From IMG/VR virus record IMGVR_UViG_2541047865_000003: a stretch of DNA of 35,749 bases; one strand, 5' to 3'. Under the pieces are notes generated by a model that searched no databases, was not told where the DNA came from, and was given only the letters and a program-made list of their open reading frames with translations. A program made the translations under genes and the position numbers. The stretch comes from a virus. Lineage: Duplodnaviria > Heunggongvirae > Uroviricota > Caudoviricetes. Positions 1 to 32,580 of this stretch are shown here, in pieces. The stretch's first letter is position 1. Every line of letters begins with the position of its first letter.

Positions 1-1602
1 ATGTATAGAACTCACCGACAACACAGCCTGTTAAGCTCTGGTGGAGTGCCATCGTTTATTGGTGGGCTGGTGGTGTTTGTGTCGGCAGCGTTCAATGCAC
101 AAGCTGAAACCTGGTTCGATCCTGCCTTTTTCAAAGATGATCCCTCAATGGTGGCCGATTTGTCTCGTTTCGAAAAAGGACAAAAAATAACGCCAGGGGT
201 TTATCGTGTCGATATTGTTCTGAATCAGACAATTGTAGATACGCGCAACGTCAATTTTGTTGAGTTAACGCCAGAGAAGGGGATTGCCGCCTGTTTGACG
301 ACTGAAAGCCTGGATGCAATGGGTGTGAATACTGATGCGTTTCCGGCTTTTAAACAACTGGACAAACAAGCGTGTGCGCTATTGGCGGAGATTATTCCGG
401 ATGCCAGCGTAACTTTTAATGTGAATAAACTCCGTCTGGAAATTTCAGTACCGCAAATTGCTATAAAAAGTAACGCTCGTGGTTATGTCCCCCCTGAACG
501 TTGGGATGAAGGGATCAACGCGCTATTACTGGGATATTCATTTAGCGGGGCTAACAGTATTCATAGCAGCGCAGACAGTGATTCTGGCGACAGTTATTTT
601 CTGAATTTAAACAGTGGCGTTAATTTAGGCCCATGGAGATTGCGCAACAATTCAACATGGAGTCGTAGTAGTGGCCAAACCGCAGAATGGAAGAATCTCA
701 GCAGCTATTTGCAACGGGCGGTTATTCCTCTGAAAGGCGAACTGACCGTAGGTGATGATTATACTGCAGGCGATTTTTTCGATAGTGTCAGCTTTCGTGG
801 TGTGCAGCTGGCGTCAGATGACAACATGCTGCCAGACAGCCTGAAAGGGTTTGCGCCTGTGGTGCGTGGTATCGCCAAAAGCAATGCCCAGATAACGATT
901 AAGCAAAATGGTTACACCATTTACCAAACTTATGTATCGCCTGGTGCTTTTGAAATTAGTGATCTCTATTCCACGTCGTCGAGCGGTGATTTGTTAGTTG
1001 AAATCAAAGAAGCGGACGGCAGCGTCAATAGCTACAGCGTACCGTTTTCCAGCGTGCCATTACTCCAGCGTCAGGGGCGAATCAAATACGCGGTGACACT
1101 GGCGAAATACAGAACCAATAGTAATGAACAGCAGGAGAGCAAATTTGCCCAGGCCACGTTGCAGTGGGGCGGACCGTGGGGAACGACATGGTATGGTGGT
1201 GGACAATATGCTGAATATTACCGTGCCGCCATGTTTGGTCTGGGATTTAACCTTGGCGATTTCGGAGCAATTTCGTTCGATGCGACCCAGGCGAAGAGTA
1301 CGCTGGCAGACCAAAGCGAACATAAAGGTCAGTCATATCGTTTTCTGTATGCCAAAACGCTCAACCAATTGGGCACTAATTTTCAATTGATGGGCTATCG
1401 CTATTCGACGTCGGGTTTCTACACCCTTTCCGACACCATGTATAAACATATGGATGGCTACGAATTTAATGACGGTGATGATGAAGATACGCCGATGTGG
1501 TCGCGTTATTACAATTTGTTTTACACCAAACGTGGCAAACTGCAGGTCAATATCTCCCAGCAATTAGGCGAGTACGGTTCGTTTTATTTAAGTGGTAGCT
1601 GA
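1..1602 (+). CDS. Fimbrial outer-membrane usher protein (FimD/PapC family), 5' fragment; reading frame ends at the prophage junction
   Basis: 533-aa ORF with a signal-peptide-like N-terminus (…AAFNAQA) and FimD-like motifs (ADLSRFEKGQ, PGVYRVDI, RGYVPPERWDEGINA, LASDDNMLPDSLKGFAPV, GQSYRFLY, YRYSTSGFY, FYLSGS). Ushers are ~850 aa; here the frame stops at TGA 1600-1602, where Mu-end-like sequence begins. True start may lie upstream of the window. Confidence 0.8.
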   Translation: MYRTHRQHSLLSSGGVPSFIGGLVVFVSAAFNAQAETWFDPAFFKDDPSMVADLSRFEKGQKITPGVYRVDIVLNQTIVDTRNVNFVELTPEKGIAACLTTESLDAMGVNTDAFPAFKQLDKQACALLAEIIPDASVTFNVNKLRLEISVPQIAIKSNARGYVPPERWDEGINALLLGYSFSGANSIHSSADSDSGDSYFLNLNSGVNLGPWRLRNNSTWSRSSGQTAEWKNLSSYLQRAVIPLKGELTVGDDYTAGDFFDSVSFRGVQLASDDNMLPDSLKGFAPVVRGIAKSNAQITIKQNGYTIYQTYVSPGAFEISDLYSTSSSGDLLVEIKEADGSVNSYSVPFSSVPLLQRQGRIKYAVTLAKYRTNSNEQQESKFAQATLQWGGPWGTTWYGGGQYAEYYRAAMFGLGFNLGDFGAISFDATQAKSTLADQSEHKGQSYRFLYAKTLNQLGTNFQLMGYRYSTSGFYTLSDTMYKHMDGYEFNDGDDEDTPMWSRYYNLFYTKRGKLQVNISQQLGEYGSFYLSGS

Positions 1603-1677
1603 TGCGCCGCGCGATAAATGCGCCCATTTCCGTGAGATAAATGGCACCGCTGCGGCGTTTCAATATTTGAAAAAGAA
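1603..1677. repeat. Prophage terminal region with two direct repeats of a GATAAATG-containing motif (candidate transposase-binding sites)
   Basis: Begins 5'-TGATGCGCCGCGCGATAAATGCG, resembling the Mu right-end R1 consensus (TGAAGCGGCGCACGAAAAACGCG, recalled from memory). GATAAATG occurs at ~1613-1620 and ~1636-1643, about 23 bp apart; Mu end sites are ~22 bp units. Confidence 0.45.
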
Positions 1678-2259
1678 TTACAATCCTACCGCGTCATCCT
1701 TCCTCTGACTATCTACCGGAAAATACCGGTAGAGCGTCGATAACCCCACCCCGTAGATAATGGCCAGTTGCTGGCGGGTATGCCCCTTAGCCAATAGCCG
1801 CCCAATCTGTTCTCGCTCATGAGGCTTTAATGCGTTGGGCCTTCCACCTATGCGTCCCTGTGCTCTGGCTGCTGCTAACCCGGCCAATGTTCGTTCGACG
1901 ATCAACTCACGTTCCATTTCCGCCAGTGCCGACATCACATGGAAAAAGAAACGCCCCATGGCAGTGCTGGTATCAATACTGTCTGTTAAAGAGCGGAAGT
2001 GGGCACCGCGTTCATGTAACTCTGATATCAGTGCGATCAGGTTCTTAACGCTGCGCCCCAGCCTGTCCAGTTTCCACACGACCAGGGTGTCTCCGCTATT
2101 AACGCACTTTAAAGCGCGTTTCAGACCGGGGCGGCTGGCAACTTTTCCGCTCATACGGTCTTCAAAAATGCGGTCACAGTTTGCGCTTATGAGTGCATTA
2201 CGCTGTAAATCGCTGTTCTGGTCGATTGTTGATACGCGGATATAACCAATGACGGCCAT
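1678..2259 (-). CDS. gin: Serine-recombinase DNA invertase (Gin/Hin/Cin/Pin family)
   Basis: 193-aa product from MAVIGYIRVSTIDQNSDLQRNAL…, closely matching the Gin/Hin N-terminus (catalytic Ser in VST, C-terminal HTH …STLYRYF). ATG at 2257-2259 preceded by a GGAGGAG RBS. The track ORF 1678..2421 is an upstream in-frame extension. Confidence 0.85.
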   Translation of the reverse strand: MAVIGYIRVSTIDQNSDLQRNALISANCDRIFEDRMSGKVASRPGLKRALKCVNSGDTLVVWKLDRLGRSVKNLIALISELHERGAHFRSLTDSIDTSTAMGRFFFHVMSALAEMERELIVERTLAGLAAARAQGRIGGRPNALKPHEREQIGRLLAKGHTRQQLAIIYGVGLSTLYRYFPVDSQRKDDAVGL

Positions 2260-2321
2260 CAATTCTCCTCCTCTATGTCGCGGTGGGAGGATTTTTACAG
2301 ATTTCGCTATGTGTAACCGCT

Positions 2322-2347
2322 TTTCCAAAAACCTTGGTTTGGGAGAA
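2322..2347. repeat. gix/hix-like recombination crossover site (copy next to gin)
   Basis: 26-bp site TTTCCAAAAACC-TT-GGTTTGGGAGAA, resembling the Hin hix consensus TTCTTGAAAACC-AA-GGTTTTTGATAA. Inverted relative to the 4154-4179 copy, sharing a ~21-bp identical core. Confidence 0.75.
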
Positions 2348-2800
2348 GGTTCGGCATTACCCGTTGGTGTGCCTGTCCCGTGGCCTTCCGCCACTCCGCC
2401 AACAGGCTGGCTAAAATGCAATGGTGCGGCTTTTTCTGCTGAAGAATACCCGGAACTGGCAAAGGTTTATCCGACAAATAAATTGCCTGATTTACGCGGT
2501 GAATTTATTCGTGGCTGGGATGACGGACGTGGAGTGGATGCCGGGCGACAATTATTATCTTCACAGGGGGATGCAATAAGAAATATTGAGGGATTCGCAG
2601 ATGGCGGGATCGGTATGTCTTTTGATGCAATCAGAGGGGCTTTTTACGATGCAGGAACACGATCAGCGAGAATGCCGAATAACACAACTACTATAGACAA
2701 AACCGATGACCTTGGATTCGACGCCTCTCGTGTCGTGCCAACAGCTAATGAAAACCGTCCACGTAACATCGCCTTTAATTATATTGTGAGGGCTGCATAA
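2348..2800 (+). CDS. Alternative tail-fibre C-terminal variable segment (Sv'), no own start; would fuse to the constant S N-terminus after inversion
   Basis: Frame open through the crossover site, encoding the same NLGLGE junction as the S gene, then a receptor-binding-like region (PVGVPVPWPSATPPTGWLKCNGAAFSAEEYPELAKVYP). Stop at 2798-2800 overlaps the start of the downstream assembly gene. Confidence 0.65.
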   Translation, partial: GSALPVGVPVPWPSATPPTGWLKCNGAAFSAEEYPELAKVYPTNKLPDLRGEFIRGWDDGRGVDAGRQLLSSQGDAIRNIEGFADGGIGMSFDAIRGAFYDAGTRSARMPNNTTTIDKTDDLGFDASRVVPTANENRPRNIAFNYIVRAA

Positions 2801-3393
2801 TGAAACCTGTTTTTGATGAAAATGGGCTGGCTACAGTGCCGGGTGATATGCGTTGTTTTTATTATGATGCAGTAACGTCTGAATATACGGGCTGGTCTGA
2901 TGAATATATTAATACTGGCGTAAGTATGCCCGCCTGTTCCACTGGTATTGACCCGGGCGAATACATTCCGGGGAAAGTGGCAGTATTTACGGGTAAGGGA
3001 TGGAGCCATGAAGAAGACCACCGCAATGAGACTGTTTACTCAATCGAAAATGGCGCAGCTGTTACAGTGGATTATATCGGTGCCATCAAAGACGGTTATG
3101 TCACGCTTTCACCGTTAACGCCATACGATAAATGGGATGGTGAGAAATGGGTGACAGATACTGAGGCACAGCATAGTGCCGCACTAGACGCGGCAGAAGC
3201 ACAGCGCCAGTCGCTGATTGATGCTGCAATGGCTTCCATCAGTCTGATTCAACTGAAATTACAGGCCGGGCGGAAGCTGACGCAGGCAGAAACAACCCGA
3301 CTTAACGCCGTGCTGGATTATATTGACGCGGTGACGGTAACAGATACCAGCACTGCGCCGGATGTCATCTGGCCTGAACTGCCGGAGGCGTAG
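2800..3393 (+). CDS. Tail-fibre assembly protein (U'-like, alternative orientation)
   Basis: 197 aa with the conserved C-terminal assembly-chaperone motif (…DTSTAPDVIWPELPEA). TAATG overlap with Sv'. Confidence 0.75.
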   Translation: MKPVFDENGLATVPGDMRCFYYDAVTSEYTGWSDEYINTGVSMPACSTGIDPGEYIPGKVAVFTGKGWSHEEDHRNETVYSIENGAAVTVDYIGAIKDGYVTLSPLTPYDKWDGEKWVTDTEAQHSAALDAAEAQRQSLIDAAMASISLIQLKLQAGRKLTQAETTRLNAVLDYIDAVTVTDTSTAPDVIWPELPEA

Positions 3394-18378: not shown

Positions 18379-18592
18379 TTTGCTGTCCCGCGTTACGTTG
18401 TCGGGGACAGTCTGTGGAAAAAGCGTCAGCAGCGCTTTTAATCTGCTTTAGAAAAAATCGGGGGTATCAGTACGGGGAATGTCACGCTGCGGGCGAATAG
18501 TGGTGCAAAGCGGGGGCTGTAAAGCCTTTATAAAGGTAATACAGCCCCTCAGCGGCTGGCAATGATAAATCACCCGCCTGCAGAGACAAAAC

Positions 18593-26845: not shown

Positions 26846-27379
26846 TTAATCCTGCCTTGGACAAGTCCAATAATCATTATCTGGCTCTGGTGAATAAGCT
26901 TTCAAACAACCTGCTCGCGGGGTCTTACCATCATCTGTCATAGGAACTTTTTCCTTATCAAGTTTCACGGTCAGGTCTCCACCAGGAACATCCGTTTTAT
27001 CGAAAAAAACAGCCTGACATGCTGATTTAGATATTTTCACTTCGTGGGCATTATTTGATATGAACAAATAACAATTATGACCAGAGGCTATGTAGTCACT
27101 TGGAATATTATTTTCGTCTTTAATATGAAACTGCACCGTTGTCACCGGGCGTTCGCTATCCTCGGATACTTCGACTTTTTCAAAACTGTCCGCGTACTTA
27201 TCCAGGCCGGGGAGTTGTTGGCGAATAAACGGTAATTCGCGATTTACAACCGGATTATCTGTTTCAACGCTAAAAACCGCGTGCTCCTTAGCTGTGGTGG
27301 ACGTATCAGCAGGATCGGTATTATCTCCACACCCAGATAAAACAAATATCAACGGTAAAAATAATTTGCGCATAGTCAT
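26846..27379 (-). CDS. Lipoprotein of unknown function (177 aa), AT-rich moron downstream of the repressor
   Basis: Signal peptide MTMRKLFLPLIFVLSGC with lipobox; mature part has four more Cys; AT-rich codons; RBS ~35 nt after the repressor stop on the same strand. Confidence 0.65.
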   Translation of the reverse strand: MTMRKLFLPLIFVLSGCGDNTDPADTSTTAKEHAVFSVETDNPVVNRELPFIRQQLPGLDKYADSFEKVEVSEDSERPVTTVQFHIKDENNIPSDYIASGHNCYLFISNNAHEVKISKSACQAVFFDKTDVPGGDLTVKLDKEKVPMTDDGKTPRAGCLKAYSPEPDNDYWTCPRQD

Positions 27380-27414
27380 GTCCTTATACCTCTAATGTTC
27401 TTAATAGGAACAGA

Positions 27415-27825
27415 TTAACCCGTATTTTTTAATCTTTCGAACGCTGCGGACAGCTCCTTAAGCTGTTTTTCCATATCAATCATTCGCTGTTTTTCCTCAG
27501 CGCCTCGCAGCAACTCTTTTCGCACCTCTGGCTCCAGTTGGTTGAGCAGCTCCAATAACTTCAGATCAGACTGGTTGAAATGCTGCTCCTGATTAGCTGG
27601 CTGTGCTTTCTCTACCCCAACAGCTTCCCCTTTACCAGTAAGTAGCCAATCTATTGATATGTTCAAATGGGTGCTTAGCGCAACAAGAGCCTCTGCATTA
27701 GGTTCTCTCTCTCCACGCAGATAGTTTTGAAGTGAGCGATATGGAATTTTTGACAAGTCTGACAATGCCTTAATTGTCAGACCCTTAGCATCCATCGCTT
27801 CGCGCAATCTCTCTTTTATACTCAT
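27415..27825 (-). CDS. Prophage repressor (XRE-family HTH)
   Basis: Start at MSIKERLREAMDAKGLTIKALSDLSKIPYRSLQNYLRGER… (HTH), C-terminal coiled-coil-like region. Divergent from the early operon across an ~88-bp promoter/operator region. Confidence 0.7.
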   Translation of the reverse strand: MSIKERLREAMDAKGLTIKALSDLSKIPYRSLQNYLRGEREPNAEALVALSTHLNISIDWLLTGKGEAVGVEKAQPANQEQHFNQSDLKLLELLNQLEPEVRKELLRGAEEKQRMIDMEKQLKELSAAFERLKNTG

Positions 27826-27841
27826 TTGAACATATCTCAAT

Positions 27842-27869
27842 TTGACATACCCGTTTGGGTGCGTACAAT
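27842..27869 (+). promoter_or_regulatory. Candidate sigma70 early promoter (TTGACA-16-TACAAT) with overlapping operator dyad
   Basis: TTGACA at ~27842-27847 and TACAAT at ~27864-27869, upstream of the Ner-like gene. Inverted repeat TTGGGT(N11)ACCCAA straddles the -10; a further ACCCAA lies ~20 bp downstream. Confidence 0.5.
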
Positions 27870-27913
27870 AGACCCAATAGAGTACATCATAACCCAACAG
27901 GAACACGGTGCAT

Positions 27914-28138
27914 ATGAACAAACAACAAGTTCGGGCACGGCTGGTTGAAAGAGGCAGTAGCTTGCGCCAGTTCGCGCTTAACGCGGGCTATGAGCCACGA
28001 ACAGTCACCCAGGCTGTCAGCCGCTGGGCAGGCAAAAGCGAACTTCCACGCGGTCGTTTGACTTATCGGATTTTGCGAGACCTTTCGGTCGCAATAGGCA
28101 AAGAAGTTACCCCCGGCATCCTCAAGGAGGCGTCATGA
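27914..28138 (+). CDS. Ner-like DNA-binding early regulator
   Basis: …LRQFALNAGYEPRTVTQAVSRWAGKSE… resembles the Mu Ner core; first gene of the early operon, divergent from the repressor. Confidence 0.65.
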   Translation: MNKQQVRARLVERGSSLRQFALNAGYEPRTVTQAVSRWAGKSELPRGRLTYRILRDLSVAIGKEVTPGILKEAS

Positions 28139-28440
28139 GTAAACCAAATACATCAAGCTCAGGTACCCGTATTTTGCGTGTCCTTAAGGCTTTACGCGGT
28201 CACGCTCTGAACGGTGTTTCTAACGGCGAGCTGGCGTCAGCTCTGGGCGAGTCCCCGGCGAATATCAATCGGGCGCTCAATACCCTTATCGAAGAAGGAC
28301 TGGCCCTGAAACTGGATAACGGGCGTTTTGCCCCAGGAGTCCAGCTCTTACAAATCGCCATGGCGCACAGTACCGAAATGGCGCGGGCGCAGGATCGTAT
28401 CAATGAAATTAACCAGCGTGTTATGGCTGGTAGTCGCTAA
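28135..28440 (+). CDS. Winged-helix/HTH DNA-binding protein (IclR-N-like), 101 aa
   Basis: …VSNGELASALGESPANINRALNTLIEEGLA… HTH-like segment; ATGA overlap with the Ner-like stop. Confidence 0.5.
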   Translation: MSKPNTSSSGTRILRVLKALRGHALNGVSNGELASALGESPANINRALNTLIEEGLALKLDNGRFAPGVQLLQIAMAHSTEMARAQDRINEINQRVMAGSR

Positions 28441-28449
28441 GGAGTTGAA

Positions 28450-29358
28450 ATGGGACGCACAAAATCACAACCAGTTGAACTAGTGGAAGATGCACCGCTG
28501 ACCGATGGTCTCAGTGTCAGTCTTAATGCTATGTCCGAACATCGCCTCGAAATCATGCAGCAGTTTGGTGATGGCCTGCCGTATGAACGTGATCGTATTG
28601 TCCATGAAACACGTTTTTATATGGCTCAGAGTGCTGAAGCCATGCTGGAGGCGGGTAAACGACTGGTAATTCTCAAAGAAAATGAACCACATGGTGACTT
28701 CATCGACATCGTTGAGTCTCAGTTGTCCCTGTCCAAACGTACCGCGCAGGTGATGATGCAAGCATCCCTCAAATATTTGTCTCCCAAGCTTGAACCAAAA
28801 GCGCAAGCGCTTGCGCTTTTGGGTAAAACAAAGCTGTTTGAGTTGATGACGGAAGATGACGAAGACCTCGTCGAATTAGCCGATGGCGGCACGATTGCTG
28901 GTATGAGCCTCGATGATATTGATCGCATGACAAGCCGCGAACTGAAAGCGGCCCTACGCGAAGCGCGTGAAACCAACGCAGCACAACAGCGCGTGCTTGC
29001 CGACAAAAACGAAAAAATCGACTCGCTCTCCACAAAACTGGAGAAGAAATCCCGTATCCAGCCGCCCAAGCCTGACGAAGAGGTGAAGAAGCTGCGTGCG
29101 GAAGTTACAGCGTTAGCGGTTGAGGCGGAATCTGCCATCGCCGTTCGACTGTCCAGCGCCTTTGAGACCCTGTGCGCATACTGTGCTGAAAATATGATTG
29201 ATACCCCCAGAGACTTTATGGCCGGTCTGGTCTGCCAGTTGGAAAGCACCGCGCGTAGCCTGCGCTCCACATTTGACCTGCCGGACGAGCCGACAGGCAA
29301 CGCCGCCCCTTCATGGCTGACTGACCCGACGCCAGAGATTAACGGGCAGGAGGCATAA
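28450..29358 (+). CDS. Hypothetical early protein (302 aa)
   Basis: Strong RBS (AAGGAG); acidic/coiled-coil-rich; sits between the regulators and the transposase, where Mu has no gene. Confidence 0.5.
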   Translation: MGRTKSQPVELVEDAPLTDGLSVSLNAMSEHRLEIMQQFGDGLPYERDRIVHETRFYMAQSAEAMLEAGKRLVILKENEPHGDFIDIVESQLSLSKRTAQVMMQASLKYLSPKLEPKAQALALLGKTKLFELMTEDDEDLVELADGGTIAGMSLDDIDRMTSRELKAALREARETNAAQQRVLADKNEKIDSLSTKLEKKSRIQPPKPDEEVKKLRAEVTALAVEAESAIAVRLSSAFETLCAYCAENMIDTPRDFMAGLVCQLESTARSLRSTFDLPDEPTGNAAPSWLTDPTPEINGQEA

Positions 29359-29361
29359 CCC

Positions 29362-31131
29362 ATGAGTGCCGCCCTGACTGAACGACTGGTTTATGTTGCC
29401 CGCGCGGCACGTGACGCGGGGCATGGTAAGCGTGGTGCGATATATGATGCCGCCTGCGCCGAACTGGGCATTTCCCGCGCCACCCTGCTGCGCAAGCTGA
29501 AGGAGGTATCAGTGACTGACAAACGTAAAAAACGCGCCGATGCCGGGCGCAGTGCCCTGAGCCGCGACGAAGCCGCGCTGATATCTGCCACGCTGCGCGA
29601 GGCCACCCGTAAGAACGGTAAGCGCCTGTATTCCATCGCGGATGCGGTGGAGACCCTGCGGTCAAACGGCTTTATCACTGCTGGCAGAACGGACGAGGCC
29701 ACAGGCGAGTTTTTCCCGCTGTCCGAGGACACCATCAGCCGCGCCCTGCGGAACTATGGTCTGCACCCGGAACAGCTTGACGCACCGGCCCCGTCGTCCG
29801 AGATGGCCAGCCTGCATCCCAATCACGTCTGGGAGATTGATGCCTCACTTTGTACGCTTTACTACCTGAGCAACGGCCATAAAGGGTTGCAGGTGATGGA
29901 CAGCTCGAAGTTCTACAAGAACAAGCCTGCCAACATCGCCCGCATCGCCAGTGACCGCGTGTGGAGTTACGAGATTACCGACCATACCAGCGGCTGGATT
30001 TACGTTGAGTACGTGATGGGTGCGGAATCTGGTGAGAACCTCTGTTCTGTGCTTATCAACGCCATGCAGGAGCGCGGCGGCGCGGACGTGCTGCACGGCG
30101 TGCCGAAAATACTCTACCTTGATCCCGGTTCGGCGAACACCGCTGGCATGACGAAAAACATGTGCCGCTCGCTGGGCATCAATCTGATAGCGCACAAGCC
30201 GCATAACGCCCGCGCCACCGGGCAGGTGGAAAAGGCCCGTGACATTATCGAACGTAAACTGGAGCCGGGTCTCAAATTCCAGCCGGTTCATAGCCTGGAC
30301 GAACTGAACGCGCTGGCGGTGAAATGGCGCAGCCACTTTAACGCCACGGCGGTCCACAGCCGCCACGGTAAAACCCGCACGGATATCTGGCTGAAGATTA
30401 CTGCTGACCAGCTGAAAAAAGCGCCATCCGTTGAGGTTTGCCGCGAACTGGCGGTGGCCGCACCGGAACTCCGTAAGGTCACACCAAAACTGCGCGTCTC
30501 GTTCCGGGGCAATGAGTTTGACGTTTCGACGGTACCGGGCGTACTGGTCGGCGAAAAACTGATGATTACCCGTAACCCGTGGCGCAGCGATGTGGCGCAG
30601 GTGGTGCTGACCGGTGAGGACGGTCACGAGACGTTCTTCCTGGTCGAAGAGGTCAGAAAGAACGAGTTCGGCTTTGCCGAAAGCGCGGCGGTATTTGGCG
30701 AAAACTACAAAGCCCTGCCGGAGACCCCGGCGCAGACGGCGGCAAAAGAAATCGAAGAGCTGGTTACGGGCACCGATAACGCCACCGATGCAGCTGCTGC
30801 ACGCAAGGCGAAGGCGCTGCCGTTCGGCGGGCGACTTGACCCGTACAAACATATCGACGACACCACGCTTCCGGCCTATATGCCGAAGCGCGGTCAGGCT
30901 TCAGACGTGCGCGGGCCGCGTATTGAGCAGCGTCCGCTGACCCATGTGGAGGCGGCGAAAGCCCTGCGCGAGAAGTTTGGCGCTAACGGCCATATCTGGA
31001 CGCCGGAACATTACCGCCAGTTAACGGCGCAGTACCCGGATGGCGTACCTGAAGCCGCGCTGGATGAGGTGATGGTTACCCTGACCACTCCGGCCCGCAA
31101 CAGCGTTATCAGCATCGTTAACGGTAACTGA
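29362..31131 (+). CDS. DDE transposase (Mu A-like)
   Basis: 589 aa with an N-terminal DNA-binding region and candidate DDE residues (WEIDAS, LYLDPGS, HNARATGQVEKAR); followed by the AAA+ ATPase partner; RBS GGAGG. Confidence 0.8.
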   Translation: MSAALTERLVYVARAARDAGHGKRGAIYDAACAELGISRATLLRKLKEVSVTDKRKKRADAGRSALSRDEAALISATLREATRKNGKRLYSIADAVETLRSNGFITAGRTDEATGEFFPLSEDTISRALRNYGLHPEQLDAPAPSSEMASLHPNHVWEIDASLCTLYYLSNGHKGLQVMDSSKFYKNKPANIARIASDRVWSYEITDHTSGWIYVEYVMGAESGENLCSVLINAMQERGGADVLHGVPKILYLDPGSANTAGMTKNMCRSLGINLIAHKPHNARATGQVEKARDIIERKLEPGLKFQPVHSLDELNALAVKWRSHFNATAVHSRHGKTRTDIWLKITADQLKKAPSVEVCRELAVAAPELRKVTPKLRVSFRGNEFDVSTVPGVLVGEKLMITRNPWRSDVAQVVLTGEDGHETFFLVEEVRKNEFGFAESAAVFGENYKALPETPAQTAAKEIEELVTGTDNATDAAAARKAKALPFGGRLDPYKHIDDTTLPAYMPKRGQASDVRGPRIEQRPLTHVEAAKALREKFGANGHIWTPEHYRQLTAQYPDGVPEAALDEVMVTLTTPARNSVISIVNGN

Positions 31132-31141
31132 GGAGGAAGGC

Positions 31142-32308
31142 ATGCTGGTACTGAAGCAACAACTGAAAGAGGCCCGCATCCCGCAGGCGGTGGTGGCAAG
31201 AGCCGTCGCCGTTTCCGAGGCCACGCTGGCCCAGATTGTGAACCATAACGAGTGGCCACGCACCAGCCCCGAAGAGGTACGCCAGCGTCTGGCGTTGTAT
31301 CTGGAAAGTAAGGGGATTGATACAGCGAAAAGTTTTGATGCTGCACAGGGCGCTGTCACGCCCCGTACAGCGGGTACTACCGATAAAACCAACCTCAGTG
31401 AGGAAGAGAACATGTTACTCAAAAAGCAGGTGTTATTTCCAGCAACCAAAAAAGCGTTTGGCCTTTTCCGTGATCCGTTCGCCGATGAAGCCATGCAGGG
31501 CGCGGACGATGTGTTCACCACGCCGGATATCCGCTACGTGCGTGAGGCGCTGTTCCAGACCGCCCGCCATGGTGGCTTTCTGGCGGTTATCGGCGAGTCC
31601 GGTGCGGGTAAATCCACGCTGCGCCGCGACCTGATTGAACGCGTCAACCGCGAGAACGCGCCGGTGATTGTAATTGAGCCATACATCATCGCCATGGAAG
31701 ACAACGACGTGAAGGGCAAAACCCTGAAGGCGGCAGCTATCGCCGAGGCCATCATCAGCACCATCGCGCCGCTGGAGAGTATCAAACGCAGCCAGGACGC
31801 CCGCTTCCGCCAGTTGCACCGCGTCCTGAAGGACAGCAGTCAGGCGGGTTTCAGCCACGTTCTGGTGATTGAGGAGGCCCACAGCCTTCCCATTCCGACG
31901 CTGAAGCACCTTAAACGCTTCTTCGAACTGGAGTCCGGCTTCAAAAAACTGCTGTCCATCGTGCTGATTGGCCAGCCTGAACTGGCGGACAAACTGTCCG
32001 AACGCAACATGGAAGTCCGTGAGGTCGTCCAGCGCTGCGAGGTGGTTGAATTGCTGCCGCTGGACAACAGCCTCGAAGAGTTTCTGACGTTCAAACTGCA
32101 ACGTGCCGGTAAGCAGCTGGCCGACATCATGGACGCCAGCGCAGTGGAAGCCATCCGCGCCCGTCTGAGCAATCTGGGTAGTAGCCGTAAAAGCATGGTC
32201 AGCCTGCTGTATCCGCTGGCCGTCAGTAACCTGGTGATAGCCGCCATGAATCTGGCTGCTGAAATCGGGGTTCCGCAGGTCAACGCCGACGTCGTCAAAG
32301 GAGTTTAA
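31142..32308 (+). CDS. Transposition ATPase / target-DNA activator (Mu B-like AAA+)
   Basis: Walker A GESGAGKST, Walker B VLVIEEAH, N-terminal HTH-like region; immediately downstream of the transposase. Confidence 0.8.
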   Translation: MLVLKQQLKEARIPQAVVARAVAVSEATLAQIVNHNEWPRTSPEEVRQRLALYLESKGIDTAKSFDAAQGAVTPRTAGTTDKTNLSEEENMLLKKQVLFPATKKAFGLFRDPFADEAMQGADDVFTTPDIRYVREALFQTARHGGFLAVIGESGAGKSTLRRDLIERVNRENAPVIVIEPYIIAMEDNDVKGKTLKAAAIAEAIISTIAPLESIKRSQDARFRQLHRVLKDSSQAGFSHVLVIEEAHSLPIPTLKHLKRFFELESGFKKLLSIVLIGQPELADKLSERNMEVREVVQRCEVVELLPLDNSLEEFLTFKLQRAGKQLADIMDASAVEAIRARLSNLGSSRKSMVSLLYPLAVSNLVIAAMNLAAEIGVPQVNADVVKGV

Positions 32309-32310
32309 TC

Positions 32311-32580
32311 ATGAAATCCATCGCCGATATCAACCAGCAGATGAACAAGGTGCAGTCCGCCATTATGGCGCTCAACGCCATGAACACTACCGTGCAGAGC
32401 GTCATGATTGCTGGCAGTAAGCCGGTTATCCGTATCGCCCGCAACGGGCACTGTGCCCGCCTGCTGGAGCAGGGCAAAGCGAGTTATACCCATGTTGGCC
32501 ATGACGGCTCAGGGCGCTTCCGTCAGGGCGTCTTTGAGTTGCATGGCTGCCGTATTACCTGGTCAGAGTCGTTACATTAA
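32311..32580 (+). CDS. Hypothetical early protein (89 aa)
   Basis: AGGAG RBS; starts 3 nt after the B stop; several His/Cys residues. Confidence 0.45.
   Translation: MKSIADINQQMNKVQSAIMALNAMNTTVQSVMIAGSKPVIRIARNGHCARLLEQGKASYTHVGHDGSGRFRQGVFELHGCRITWSESLH

Follow-up and report, generated by a model that had tools for sequence, protein, structure and literature searches.

A conserved winged-helix/DUF3102 gene pair upstream of the transposase in B3/BcepMu-type phages, and a candidate self-recognition site inside the DUF3102 gene

What are two small genes doing between the early regulator and the transposase of a transposable phage? In Mu, as the preliminary description of this locus rightly stated, ner lies directly before A (ner 1099-1326, A 1328-3319). 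In the Caudoviricetes record IMGVR_UViG_2541047865_000003, whose full 35,749 nucleotides (nt) are called the window here, two open reading frames (ORFs) of 101 and 302 amino acids (aa) separate a Ner-like gene from the transposase gene, at exactly the coordinates first proposed (Table 1). They had been described as inserted genes, possibly additional immunity or transposition regulators specific to this lineage. Both are real, already annotated, conserved hypothetical genes, and both belong to the core of the early (lytic) operon in transposable phages of the B3/BcepMu type, where a winged helix-turn-helix protein (wHTH), a DUF3102 protein, an rve-type transposase (TnpA) and its AAA+ partner (TnpB) form a four-gene block. 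Within the DUF3102 gene we found a conserved palindrome, covarying between its arms and with residues of a putative recognition helix, in an apparent recognition code. As far as we could find, this feature is new, and we know of no self-recognising protein-site pair described for the DUF3102 family or for transposable phages.

Conservation of the gene pair in the transposition block

The pair has orthologues in B3 (ORF14/ORF13), BcepMu (gp12/gp10) and phiE255 (gp42/gp41), which show the same gene order right before an rve-type transposase and an AAA+ protein, with a DUF3102 palindrome at the equivalent codon. They differ from the window by sequence divergence only (35-58% identity for wHTH, 40-55% for DUF3102) and are annotated as hypothetical, 'transcriptional regulator' or 'DUF3102'. 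The order wHTH-DUF3102-transposase-ATPase was also found in PM105, JBD25, phiSHP3, Bise and Microcystis phage Mae-JY22, and the block is kept in 74 bacterial genomes that span Enterobacterales, Burkholderia, Bordetella, Cellvibrio, methanotrophs and Spirochaetia metagenome-assembled genomes (MAGs). From 280 DUF3102 loci analyzed, 239 have TnpA downstream, and wHTH is immediately upstream in 259 of the 275 with enough flank; where tblastn overlooked wHTH, it was present nonetheless. The DUF3102 family comprises 1505 representative clusters at 50% identity, and 1312 relatives of wHTH were found. The distance matrices of DUF3102 correlate strongly with those of TnpA and TnpB (r=0.90 for each; 0.915 for TnpA-TnpB, 0.71 for wHTH-TnpA). 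The synteny comparison, extending over B3, BcepMu and many genera down to the Spirochaetia MAGs, contradicts the supposed lineage specificity. The homologues are clear, and none was found to be a well-characterised Mu-family early protein: literature searches, whose coverage did not extend to the B3 and BcepMu genome papers, returned no functional study of the BcepMu, B3, Beetrevirus or Bcepmuvirus homologues, and the only papers found to name DUF3102 were unrelated ones.

The word 'inserted' is also a misnomer, since the downstream transposase is not MuA-like. We were not able to find any similarity to MuA by BLASTP, and Pfam revealed none of the Mu domains (HTH_Tnp_Mu_1/2, DDE_2, Mu-transpos_C), rve being the only domain detected. 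The protein aligns to positions 129-687 of the 696 of the phrog_310 profile. Both MuA and the A protein of D3112 carry the Mu-specific Pfam domains. In this small sample the distribution is complementary: the MuA-type N-terminal DNA-binding domain occurs in Mu and D3112 without the pair, and the window transposase has the pair without the domain. A comparison with the ner-A junction of Mu therefore sets two different transposition modules side by side.

The pair can be separated from the immunity genes. Homology with L015, L016, L017, L019 and PhiKM (the last a Bcepmuvirus by classification), relatives that carry a different repressor/Ner cassette, starts at 28134/28135, on the start codon of wHTH. 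This protein is 97-100% identical across differing immunity cassettes, and the repressor identity falls to 36-79% or vanishes in relatives with a downstream block 97-99% identical. The mosaic joint means that the repressor/Ner-like/operator region behaves as an exchangeable cassette; its location, together with the constancy of wHTH across immunity types, places the pair in the conserved transposition block. An immunity role for the pair is therefore unlikely, as the joint falls on the wHTH start codon, and for the same reasons the early operator (27826-27913) is unlikely to be the target of wHTH. As for the suggestion of transposition regulators, DNA-binding-type folds, co-transcription and tight linkage with the transposase make a role in transposition control plausible, although not one specific to this lineage.

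The in-gene palindrome and the putative recognition helix

The DUF3102 gene contains a perfect palindrome of 28 bp with zero spacer, CCAAAAGCGCAAGC/GCTTGCGCTTTTGG (the slash marks the dyad), which surfaced as a blastn self-match. Its perfect arms (14+14 nt, no mismatch) are longer than those of any other palindrome listed for the window. The palindrome is unique there, and its half-site recurs nowhere else in the window. Palindromes are found at the equivalent codon in B3 (CAAAACGGACAAC/GTTGTCCGTTTTG), BcepMu (TTCAAAAGCGGCGTT/AACGCCGCTTTTGAA), Photorhabdus (CAAAAGCGAAAAC/GTTTTCGCTTTTG) and Spirochaetia (TCAAATCGCTCAAC/GTTGAGCGATTTGA). The inner sequence varies between homologues, with both arms altered together, and the dyad always lies between codon bases 2 and 3. 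The conserved core has 26 bp (28796-28821). In the 280 loci, all 13 pairs are kept at this codon position in 118 cases, 12 in 54 and 11 in 39, so at least 11 of 13 pairs are present in 211 homologues (75%), a level reached by 4 of 1389 control windows (0.3%) taken from these genes. The palindrome is also present in DUF3102 genes of Firmicutes plasmids and prophages that have no adjacent Mu-type transposase gene.

The sites comprise 104 distinct 30-mers, and covariation was evaluated on 61 distinct 30-mers. Paired cells amount to 94.8%, against 69.9±1.2% in shuffled and 33-41% in slid alignments, a percentage inflated by the preselection of this set at ≥11/13 pairs, which leaves the control-window comparison unaffected. 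Changes on both sides occur in 9 of the 13 pairs (7.7±0.7 when shuffled), cells with double-sided changes number 196 (59±9), and the covariation score is 0.616 (0.162). The half-site consensus, from c13 to c1, is C-A-A-A-W-S-N-S-N-M-R-D-C. G:T pairs are not in excess among the mismatches (21 G:T, 46 A:C, 45 other), almost every site is palindromic through its centre, and the palindrome gave neither a terminator-like call nor an Rfam match. For these reasons the pattern suggests a site on duplex DNA more than an RNA hairpin.

The encoded protein is compatible with a DNA binder in its fold. It scores 30.2 bits against Pfam DUF3102 (PF11300; gathering 24.4) over residues 64-171, and the phrog_1748 match is full length, as is that of wHTH to phrog_1368. 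In the AlphaFold2 model (predicted local distance difference test score 92.2), a disordered basic tail precedes a helical domain (47-145) with a helix-turn-helix (HTH; …LSLSKRTAQVMMQA…), followed by a small hairpin, a 40+40-residue antiparallel coiled coil (162-247), a helix (254-274) and an acidic disordered tail with a conserved Trp. The protein is acidic (isoelectric point, pI, 4.75) and rich in coiled coil, as had been described from the sequence. A Foldseek search of the model against PDB gave nothing at E≤0.001, and NCBIfam and PADLOC gave nothing for this protein. A set of 44 distinct proteins with ≥78% identity to that of the window varies mostly in residues 81-125 and in the N-terminal tail, and is almost invariant over residues 31-80 and 171-260.

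Sequence-profile searches of PDB with the DUF3102 protein returned only MafG and coiled-coil matches with high compositional bias. Residues ~150-167 (28897-28950, LDDIDRMTSRELKAALRE), where 'LDDIDRMSxRELRxALR' is followed by the coiled coil, resemble the extended-homology/basic-zipper region of MafG (E 1e-5). This motif is among the most conserved parts of DUF3102, Firmicutes members included, and the likeness is probably convergent or compositional.

The bases of the half-site follow two residues of the second HTH helix closely. In tables covering 114 distinct HTH/arm combinations, Q100 occurs with c8-c6 = GC(G) in 57 of 60 cases and R100 with CGN in 25 of 25, and A, V or H at this position is mostly found with GTN. 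R101 is accompanied by C at c4 in 60/60 combinations; with L, V or M101 this base is A (23/23), and c5c4 is CA in 22 of the 23. All four combinations of the residue-100 and residue-101 classes occur, each with the matching site. Since codons 100 and 101 are adjacent, these four matched combinations need recurrent co-change, not recombination between the codons. On a tree made from the rest of the DUF3102 protein, 39 of ~41 class switches of protein and site fall on the same branches.

A mutual-information scan of DUF3102 columns 40-274 against each variable site position, with the palindrome-encoded residues kept outside the ranking, gave as top pairs residue 100 with c7 (0.95 of the site entropy), 97 with c6 (0.86), 100 with c8 (0.78), 101 with c4 (0.78) and 98 with c5 (0.65), over a phylogenetic background of ~0.5-0.6. 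Residues 97, 98, 100 and 101 lie in the N-terminal half of this helix, the second of the HTH. Across the dyad, a distance of 11 bp, or about one helical turn, separates the c4-c8 segments of the two arms, as is usual for HTH proteins that bind as dimers. We also considered wHTH as the reader of the palindrome core and ruled it out: one and the same wHTH protein can accompany as many as 7 different cores, and DUF3102 residues 100/101 match the core in every case. Taken as sequence evidence, these patterns make it likely that the DUF3102 protein recognises the palindrome in its own gene.

In two hosts, co-resident prophages differ in type: QR/GCGCC and QK/GCGAA in Pectobacterium colocasium CSR2 (L024/L026), RL/CGGCA and AR/GTGCC in Serratia sp. 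Ag1 (L033/L034). These anecdotal cases would fit an incompatibility-like diversification.

Possible functions of the protein-site pair

We suggest that the DUF3102 protein, as an HTH dimer, would bind the 26-bp palindrome just past its recognition-helix codons, with residues 97, 98, 100 and 101 reading bases c4-c8 of each half-site. HTH and site together would make up a specificity cassette, hypervariable and distinct between phages that are nearly identical elsewhere, and this is the pattern that would be expected of a cis-acting self-recognition element. A nucleoprotein complex nucleated ~0.5 kb upstream of tnpA may then control the adjacent transposition-replication genes, or their machinery, for its own genome. 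The downstream role of such a complex is speculative. It could be an assembly or enhancer-type site recruiting TnpA/TnpB via the conserved coiled-coil C-terminal half, or else a transcriptional roadblock setting TnpA/TnpB dosage. The first option, a cis organiser or enhancer, is suggested by the position directly upstream of tnpA, the co-inheritance and the conserved coiled-coil half, and by the fact that the transposase beside DUF3102 is without the extra N-terminal DNA-binding domain of MuA. Taken whole, the statement that a core pair exists, that DUF3102 recognises its own site and that this controls the adjacent transposition genes in cis stands, in our opinion, at even chances. A direct role of DUF3102 in transposition is doubtful. 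That DUF3102 and its palindrome would license TnpA/TnpB solely on a genome with the matching site, as a type-specific self-recognition element working as enhancer or organiser, much like the specificity types of origins or partition systems, seems to us somewhat more doubtful.

Several observations weigh against this proposal. The binding by DUF3102 is read from sequence patterns, and an acidic protein with a near-neutral HTH domain is unusual for a DNA binder. The recognition-helix codons are only ~45 nt from the palindrome, so joint inheritance or recombination could yield part of the association, and the tree test is compatible with transfer of the cassette as a unit. The palindrome itself encodes residues 116-125, and coevolution within the protein (100 with 118, 101 with 119) is an alternative that still has to be reckoned with. 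About 25% of the homologues, including PM105, JBD25-type, TJ1 and Bise, have no good palindrome at the equivalent place. Finally, the Firmicutes elements mentioned above carry the module without an adjacent Mu-type transposase gene, which indicates that the generic activity of the module, presumably site-specific nucleation on its own gene, is broader than transposition.

The roadblock setting transposase dosage is also the core of the main rival explanation, according to which both genes would be ordinary early regulators: DUF3102 would bind the palindrome only for autoregulation (a roadblock or attenuator into tnpA/tnpB), wHTH would regulate another promoter, and neither would take part in transposition. 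Regulator-type folds in both proteins agree with this, as do the position of the palindrome within the transcription unit, upstream of tnpA, and the palindrome-bearing DUF3102 genes that are promoter-proximal in early operons or beside replication genes with no Mu-type transposase adjacent. However, simple autoregulation has no obvious need for many distinct specificities among near-identical phages, and the conserved coiled-coil half and the co-inheritance with TnpA/TnpB suggest protein partners. Moreover, since the pair is part of the lytic operon, any trans effect of one resident prophage on another would be expected only after induction. We regard this explanation as unlikely, although it deserves to be taken seriously.

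Another possibility is that the palindrome works as an RNA or DNA hairpin (attenuator, RNase III site or priming signal) or is a by-product of quasipalindrome correction, its link to the HTH being mere linkage. The A4-stem-T4 flanks do resemble a weak bidirectional terminator, HTH codons and palindrome are close together in one gene, and template-switch quasipalindrome mutagenesis can change both arms together without selection. On the other hand, the loop of a hairpin would be free to vary and the centre is palindromic in nearly all homologues; the G:T excess, terminator-like call and Rfam family that might be expected are not seen; the association is specific to residues 97, 98, 100 and 101 and not to neighbouring or linked columns; and the palindrome is conserved across phyla at the frequency given above, far over that of the controls. 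We therefore consider the hairpin or by-product improbable.

Roles in host takeover, superinfection exclusion or anti-defence are known for several of the small genes that separate the repressor from the transposase in transposable phages of Pseudomonas. In Fc02, a B3-like phage, exclusion activity is shown by the gene that follows ner, and most ORFs of the pE operon have no assigned function (PMC9936078). Such a role is very improbable for this pair, since conservation over Enterobacterales, Burkholderia, Pseudomonas, Stenotrophomonas and Spirochaetia points to a core phage function rather than a host-specific one, PADLOC and NCBIfam gave no matches, and a cognate palindrome inside the gene would be unexpected for such factors.

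The arrangement of a binder with a site inside its own gene is known in kind, from parS in spo0J, the lambda origin in O and repressor-operator types. ParB/Spo0J-parS and KorB-OB are HTH proteins with palindromic sites, and one B. subtilis parS lies inside spo0J. The DUF3102 protein differs from them in several aspects: ParB and KorB have an N-terminal ParB/Srx (CTP-binding) domain, whereas the DUF3102 N-terminus is a disordered tail followed by a helix and no Pfam or NCBIfam ParB match was obtained; there is no ParA partner nearby and no sequence-level similarity; and the DUF3102 protein is acidic, with a long coiled-coil hairpin and a single site. Lambda O is closer in organization. The iterons of ori-lambda lie inside the O gene, between its two domains, and co-vary with the O type among lambdoid phages; in DUF3102, likewise, the site is in the coding sequence of the putative binder, just after the DNA-binding domain, and the cassette varies between related phages. 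However, lambda O has four iterons and an AT-rich region instead of one palindrome, the folds are unrelated, and phages of the B3/BcepMu type replicate by transposition, so that no origin is expected. A possible analogue in function is domain I-alpha of MuA with the Mu enhancer (the internal activating sequence, IAS), in that a site-specific DNA-binding module near the early region could aid transpososome assembly. In Mu, though, domain I-alpha belongs to the transposase itself and the enhancer coincides in part with the operators, whereas DUF3102 shows no homology to that domain and its candidate site is in-gene and separable from the immunity cassette.

If the proposed self-recognition holds, the types may have diversified so that co-resident related prophages cannot exploit each other, and the same protein-site module may serve other phages and plasmids, Firmicutes ones included, as a generic cis-acting organiser. 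A type-specific organiser of this kind would add an incompatibility-like layer to transposable phages and would offer orthogonal protein-site pairs for engineering. DUF3102 is widespread (at least 1500 clusters at 50% identity), with no assigned function found, and BcepMu/B3-type prophages are common in E. coli, Salmonella, Klebsiella, Burkholderia and Pseudomonas. The apparent code of two residues and five bases gives a directly testable handle on the DUF3102 family.

The wHTH protein, variant DUF3102 loci and other features of the window

The 101-aa protein is basic (pI 10.7) and has an N-terminal IclR-type winged helix (Pfam, 28.7 bits). Regulators of the IclR family have a C-terminal effector-binding (IclR/GAF-like) domain, which is absent here: Pfam detected no IclR C-terminal domain, and in the model only one helix (69-99) follows the wing. 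NCBIfam and PADLOC gave sub-threshold winged-helix matches only. It is thus a stand-alone IclR-type winged-helix DNA binder, probably dimeric, and considering the basic and acidic charges of the two proteins a wHTH-DUF3102 complex is conceivable.

Some DUF3102 proteins are longer, with 430-545 aa (P0163, P0183, P0201, P0207, P0213 and P0219). A fusion with wHTH was considered for them and ruled out, since they have instead Cys-rich N-terminal extensions of 150-260 aa with repeated motifs, possibly zinc ribbons, in which no Pfam domain was found. Divergent pairs of DUF3102 paralogues are present on an Enterobacter hormaechei plasmid (NZ_AP025814, 7.6-14.3 kb; L089/L094) and likewise on a large IncF-type Citrobacter plasmid (L090). 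Each pair has Mor and a tape-measure gene as neighbours and no adjacent transposase. The Enterobacter plasmid, of IncFIB type, also has phage-type replication genes (DnaE, primase, DnaB-like helicase, RecA), and its DUF3102 segment is ambiguous between the remnant of a Mu-like element and an independent use of the module.

Escherichia phage Phi06_2974 B matches the region analyzed at 100% identity and Klebsiella phage KP12 at 98.6%, and 639 of 5426 complete E. coli genomes contain related DNA. The early promoter-like site Pe is the sole promoter-like match within 27300-32400, and no terminator-like site was found on the + strand downstream of it up to 32400, which indicates a single early operon (Table 1). 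Its genes are tightly coupled and preceded by good ribosome-binding sites, as had been noted: the Ner-like gene ends within the start of wHTH, the two codons sharing ATGA (28135-28138) behind an upstream AAGGAGG, the stop of wHTH is contained in TAAGGAG, 9 nt ahead of the DUF3102 ATG (28450), the TnpA ATG (29362) is 3 nt past the DUF3102 stop with GGAGG in front, and 10 nt separate TnpA from TnpB. A GGAG-type site precedes every start from wHTH to TnpB.

Table 1. Coordinates in the window of the early-region genes and sites discussed in the text.
Feature	Position	Strand	Evidence or remark
CI/Cro-type repressor	27415..27825	-	Pfam HTH_3 3e-12, Phage_CI_repr 2e-6; within exchangeable immunity cassette
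Early promoter-like site (Pe)	27842..27869	+	TTGACA-16-TACAAT, 11/12 matches, strong, sigma-70-like
Ner-like small HTH gene, 76 aa	27908..28138	+	phrog_8503 5.4e-35; BcepMu gp16 family
wHTH gene, 101 aa, IclR-type winged helix	28135..28440	+	phrog_1368 1.6e-44
DUF3102 gene, 302 aa	28450..29358	+	phrog_1748 4.5e-133
Putative recognition helix, codons 96-105 (KRTAQVMMQA), second HTH helix	28735..28764	+	best predictors of half-site
Palindrome in DUF3102 gene, codons 116-125	28795..28822		candidate DUF3102 binding site
rve-type DDE transposase TnpA, 589 aa	29362..31131	+	phrog_310 8.2e-145; Pfam rve 31.4 bits
AAA+ (AAA_22/ExeA-like) transposition ATPase TnpB, 388 aa	31142..32308	+	Pfam AAA_22 3.3e-20; phrog_296 2.5e-89

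In relatives, the annotated start of the Ner-like gene is the ATG at 27914. Its product stays below the cut-offs of TIGR04111 (BcepMu gp16 family; 28.9 bits, cut-off 34) and of Pfam HTH_35 (17.6 bits, cut-off 25; Mu Ner itself scores 95.8 bits), and it is therefore best seen as a positional Ner analogue. Right after the ATPase, an 89-aa gene (32311-32580) weakly matches the Kil family of septation inhibitors (phrog_6381, E 0.0048) and occupies the position equivalent to kil in Mu.

Other repeats were seen in the window. A perfect inverted repeat of 10 nt with a 6-nt spacer (GTCTGACAAT N6 ATTGTCAGAC, 27757-27782) lies in the repressor gene near its 5' end, and the late region has a near-palindrome of 36 bp (18513-18548) with overlapping 22-nt arms, 86% complementary. 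The repeats of the operator region and an end-proximal GAGATAAATG motif were examined, and no link to wHTH or to the DUF3102 protein was found. The window opens within a host gene (1-1602) whose ORF stops at ~533 aa and whose product is presumably a fimbrial usher. The 60 nt after it contain two GATAAATG-type repeats in direct orientation, at 1611-1620 and 1634-1643, and at the opposite prophage end in E. coli CFS3292 motifs resembling them are found inverted. These repeats probably mark the left prophage end and are transposase-binding sites.

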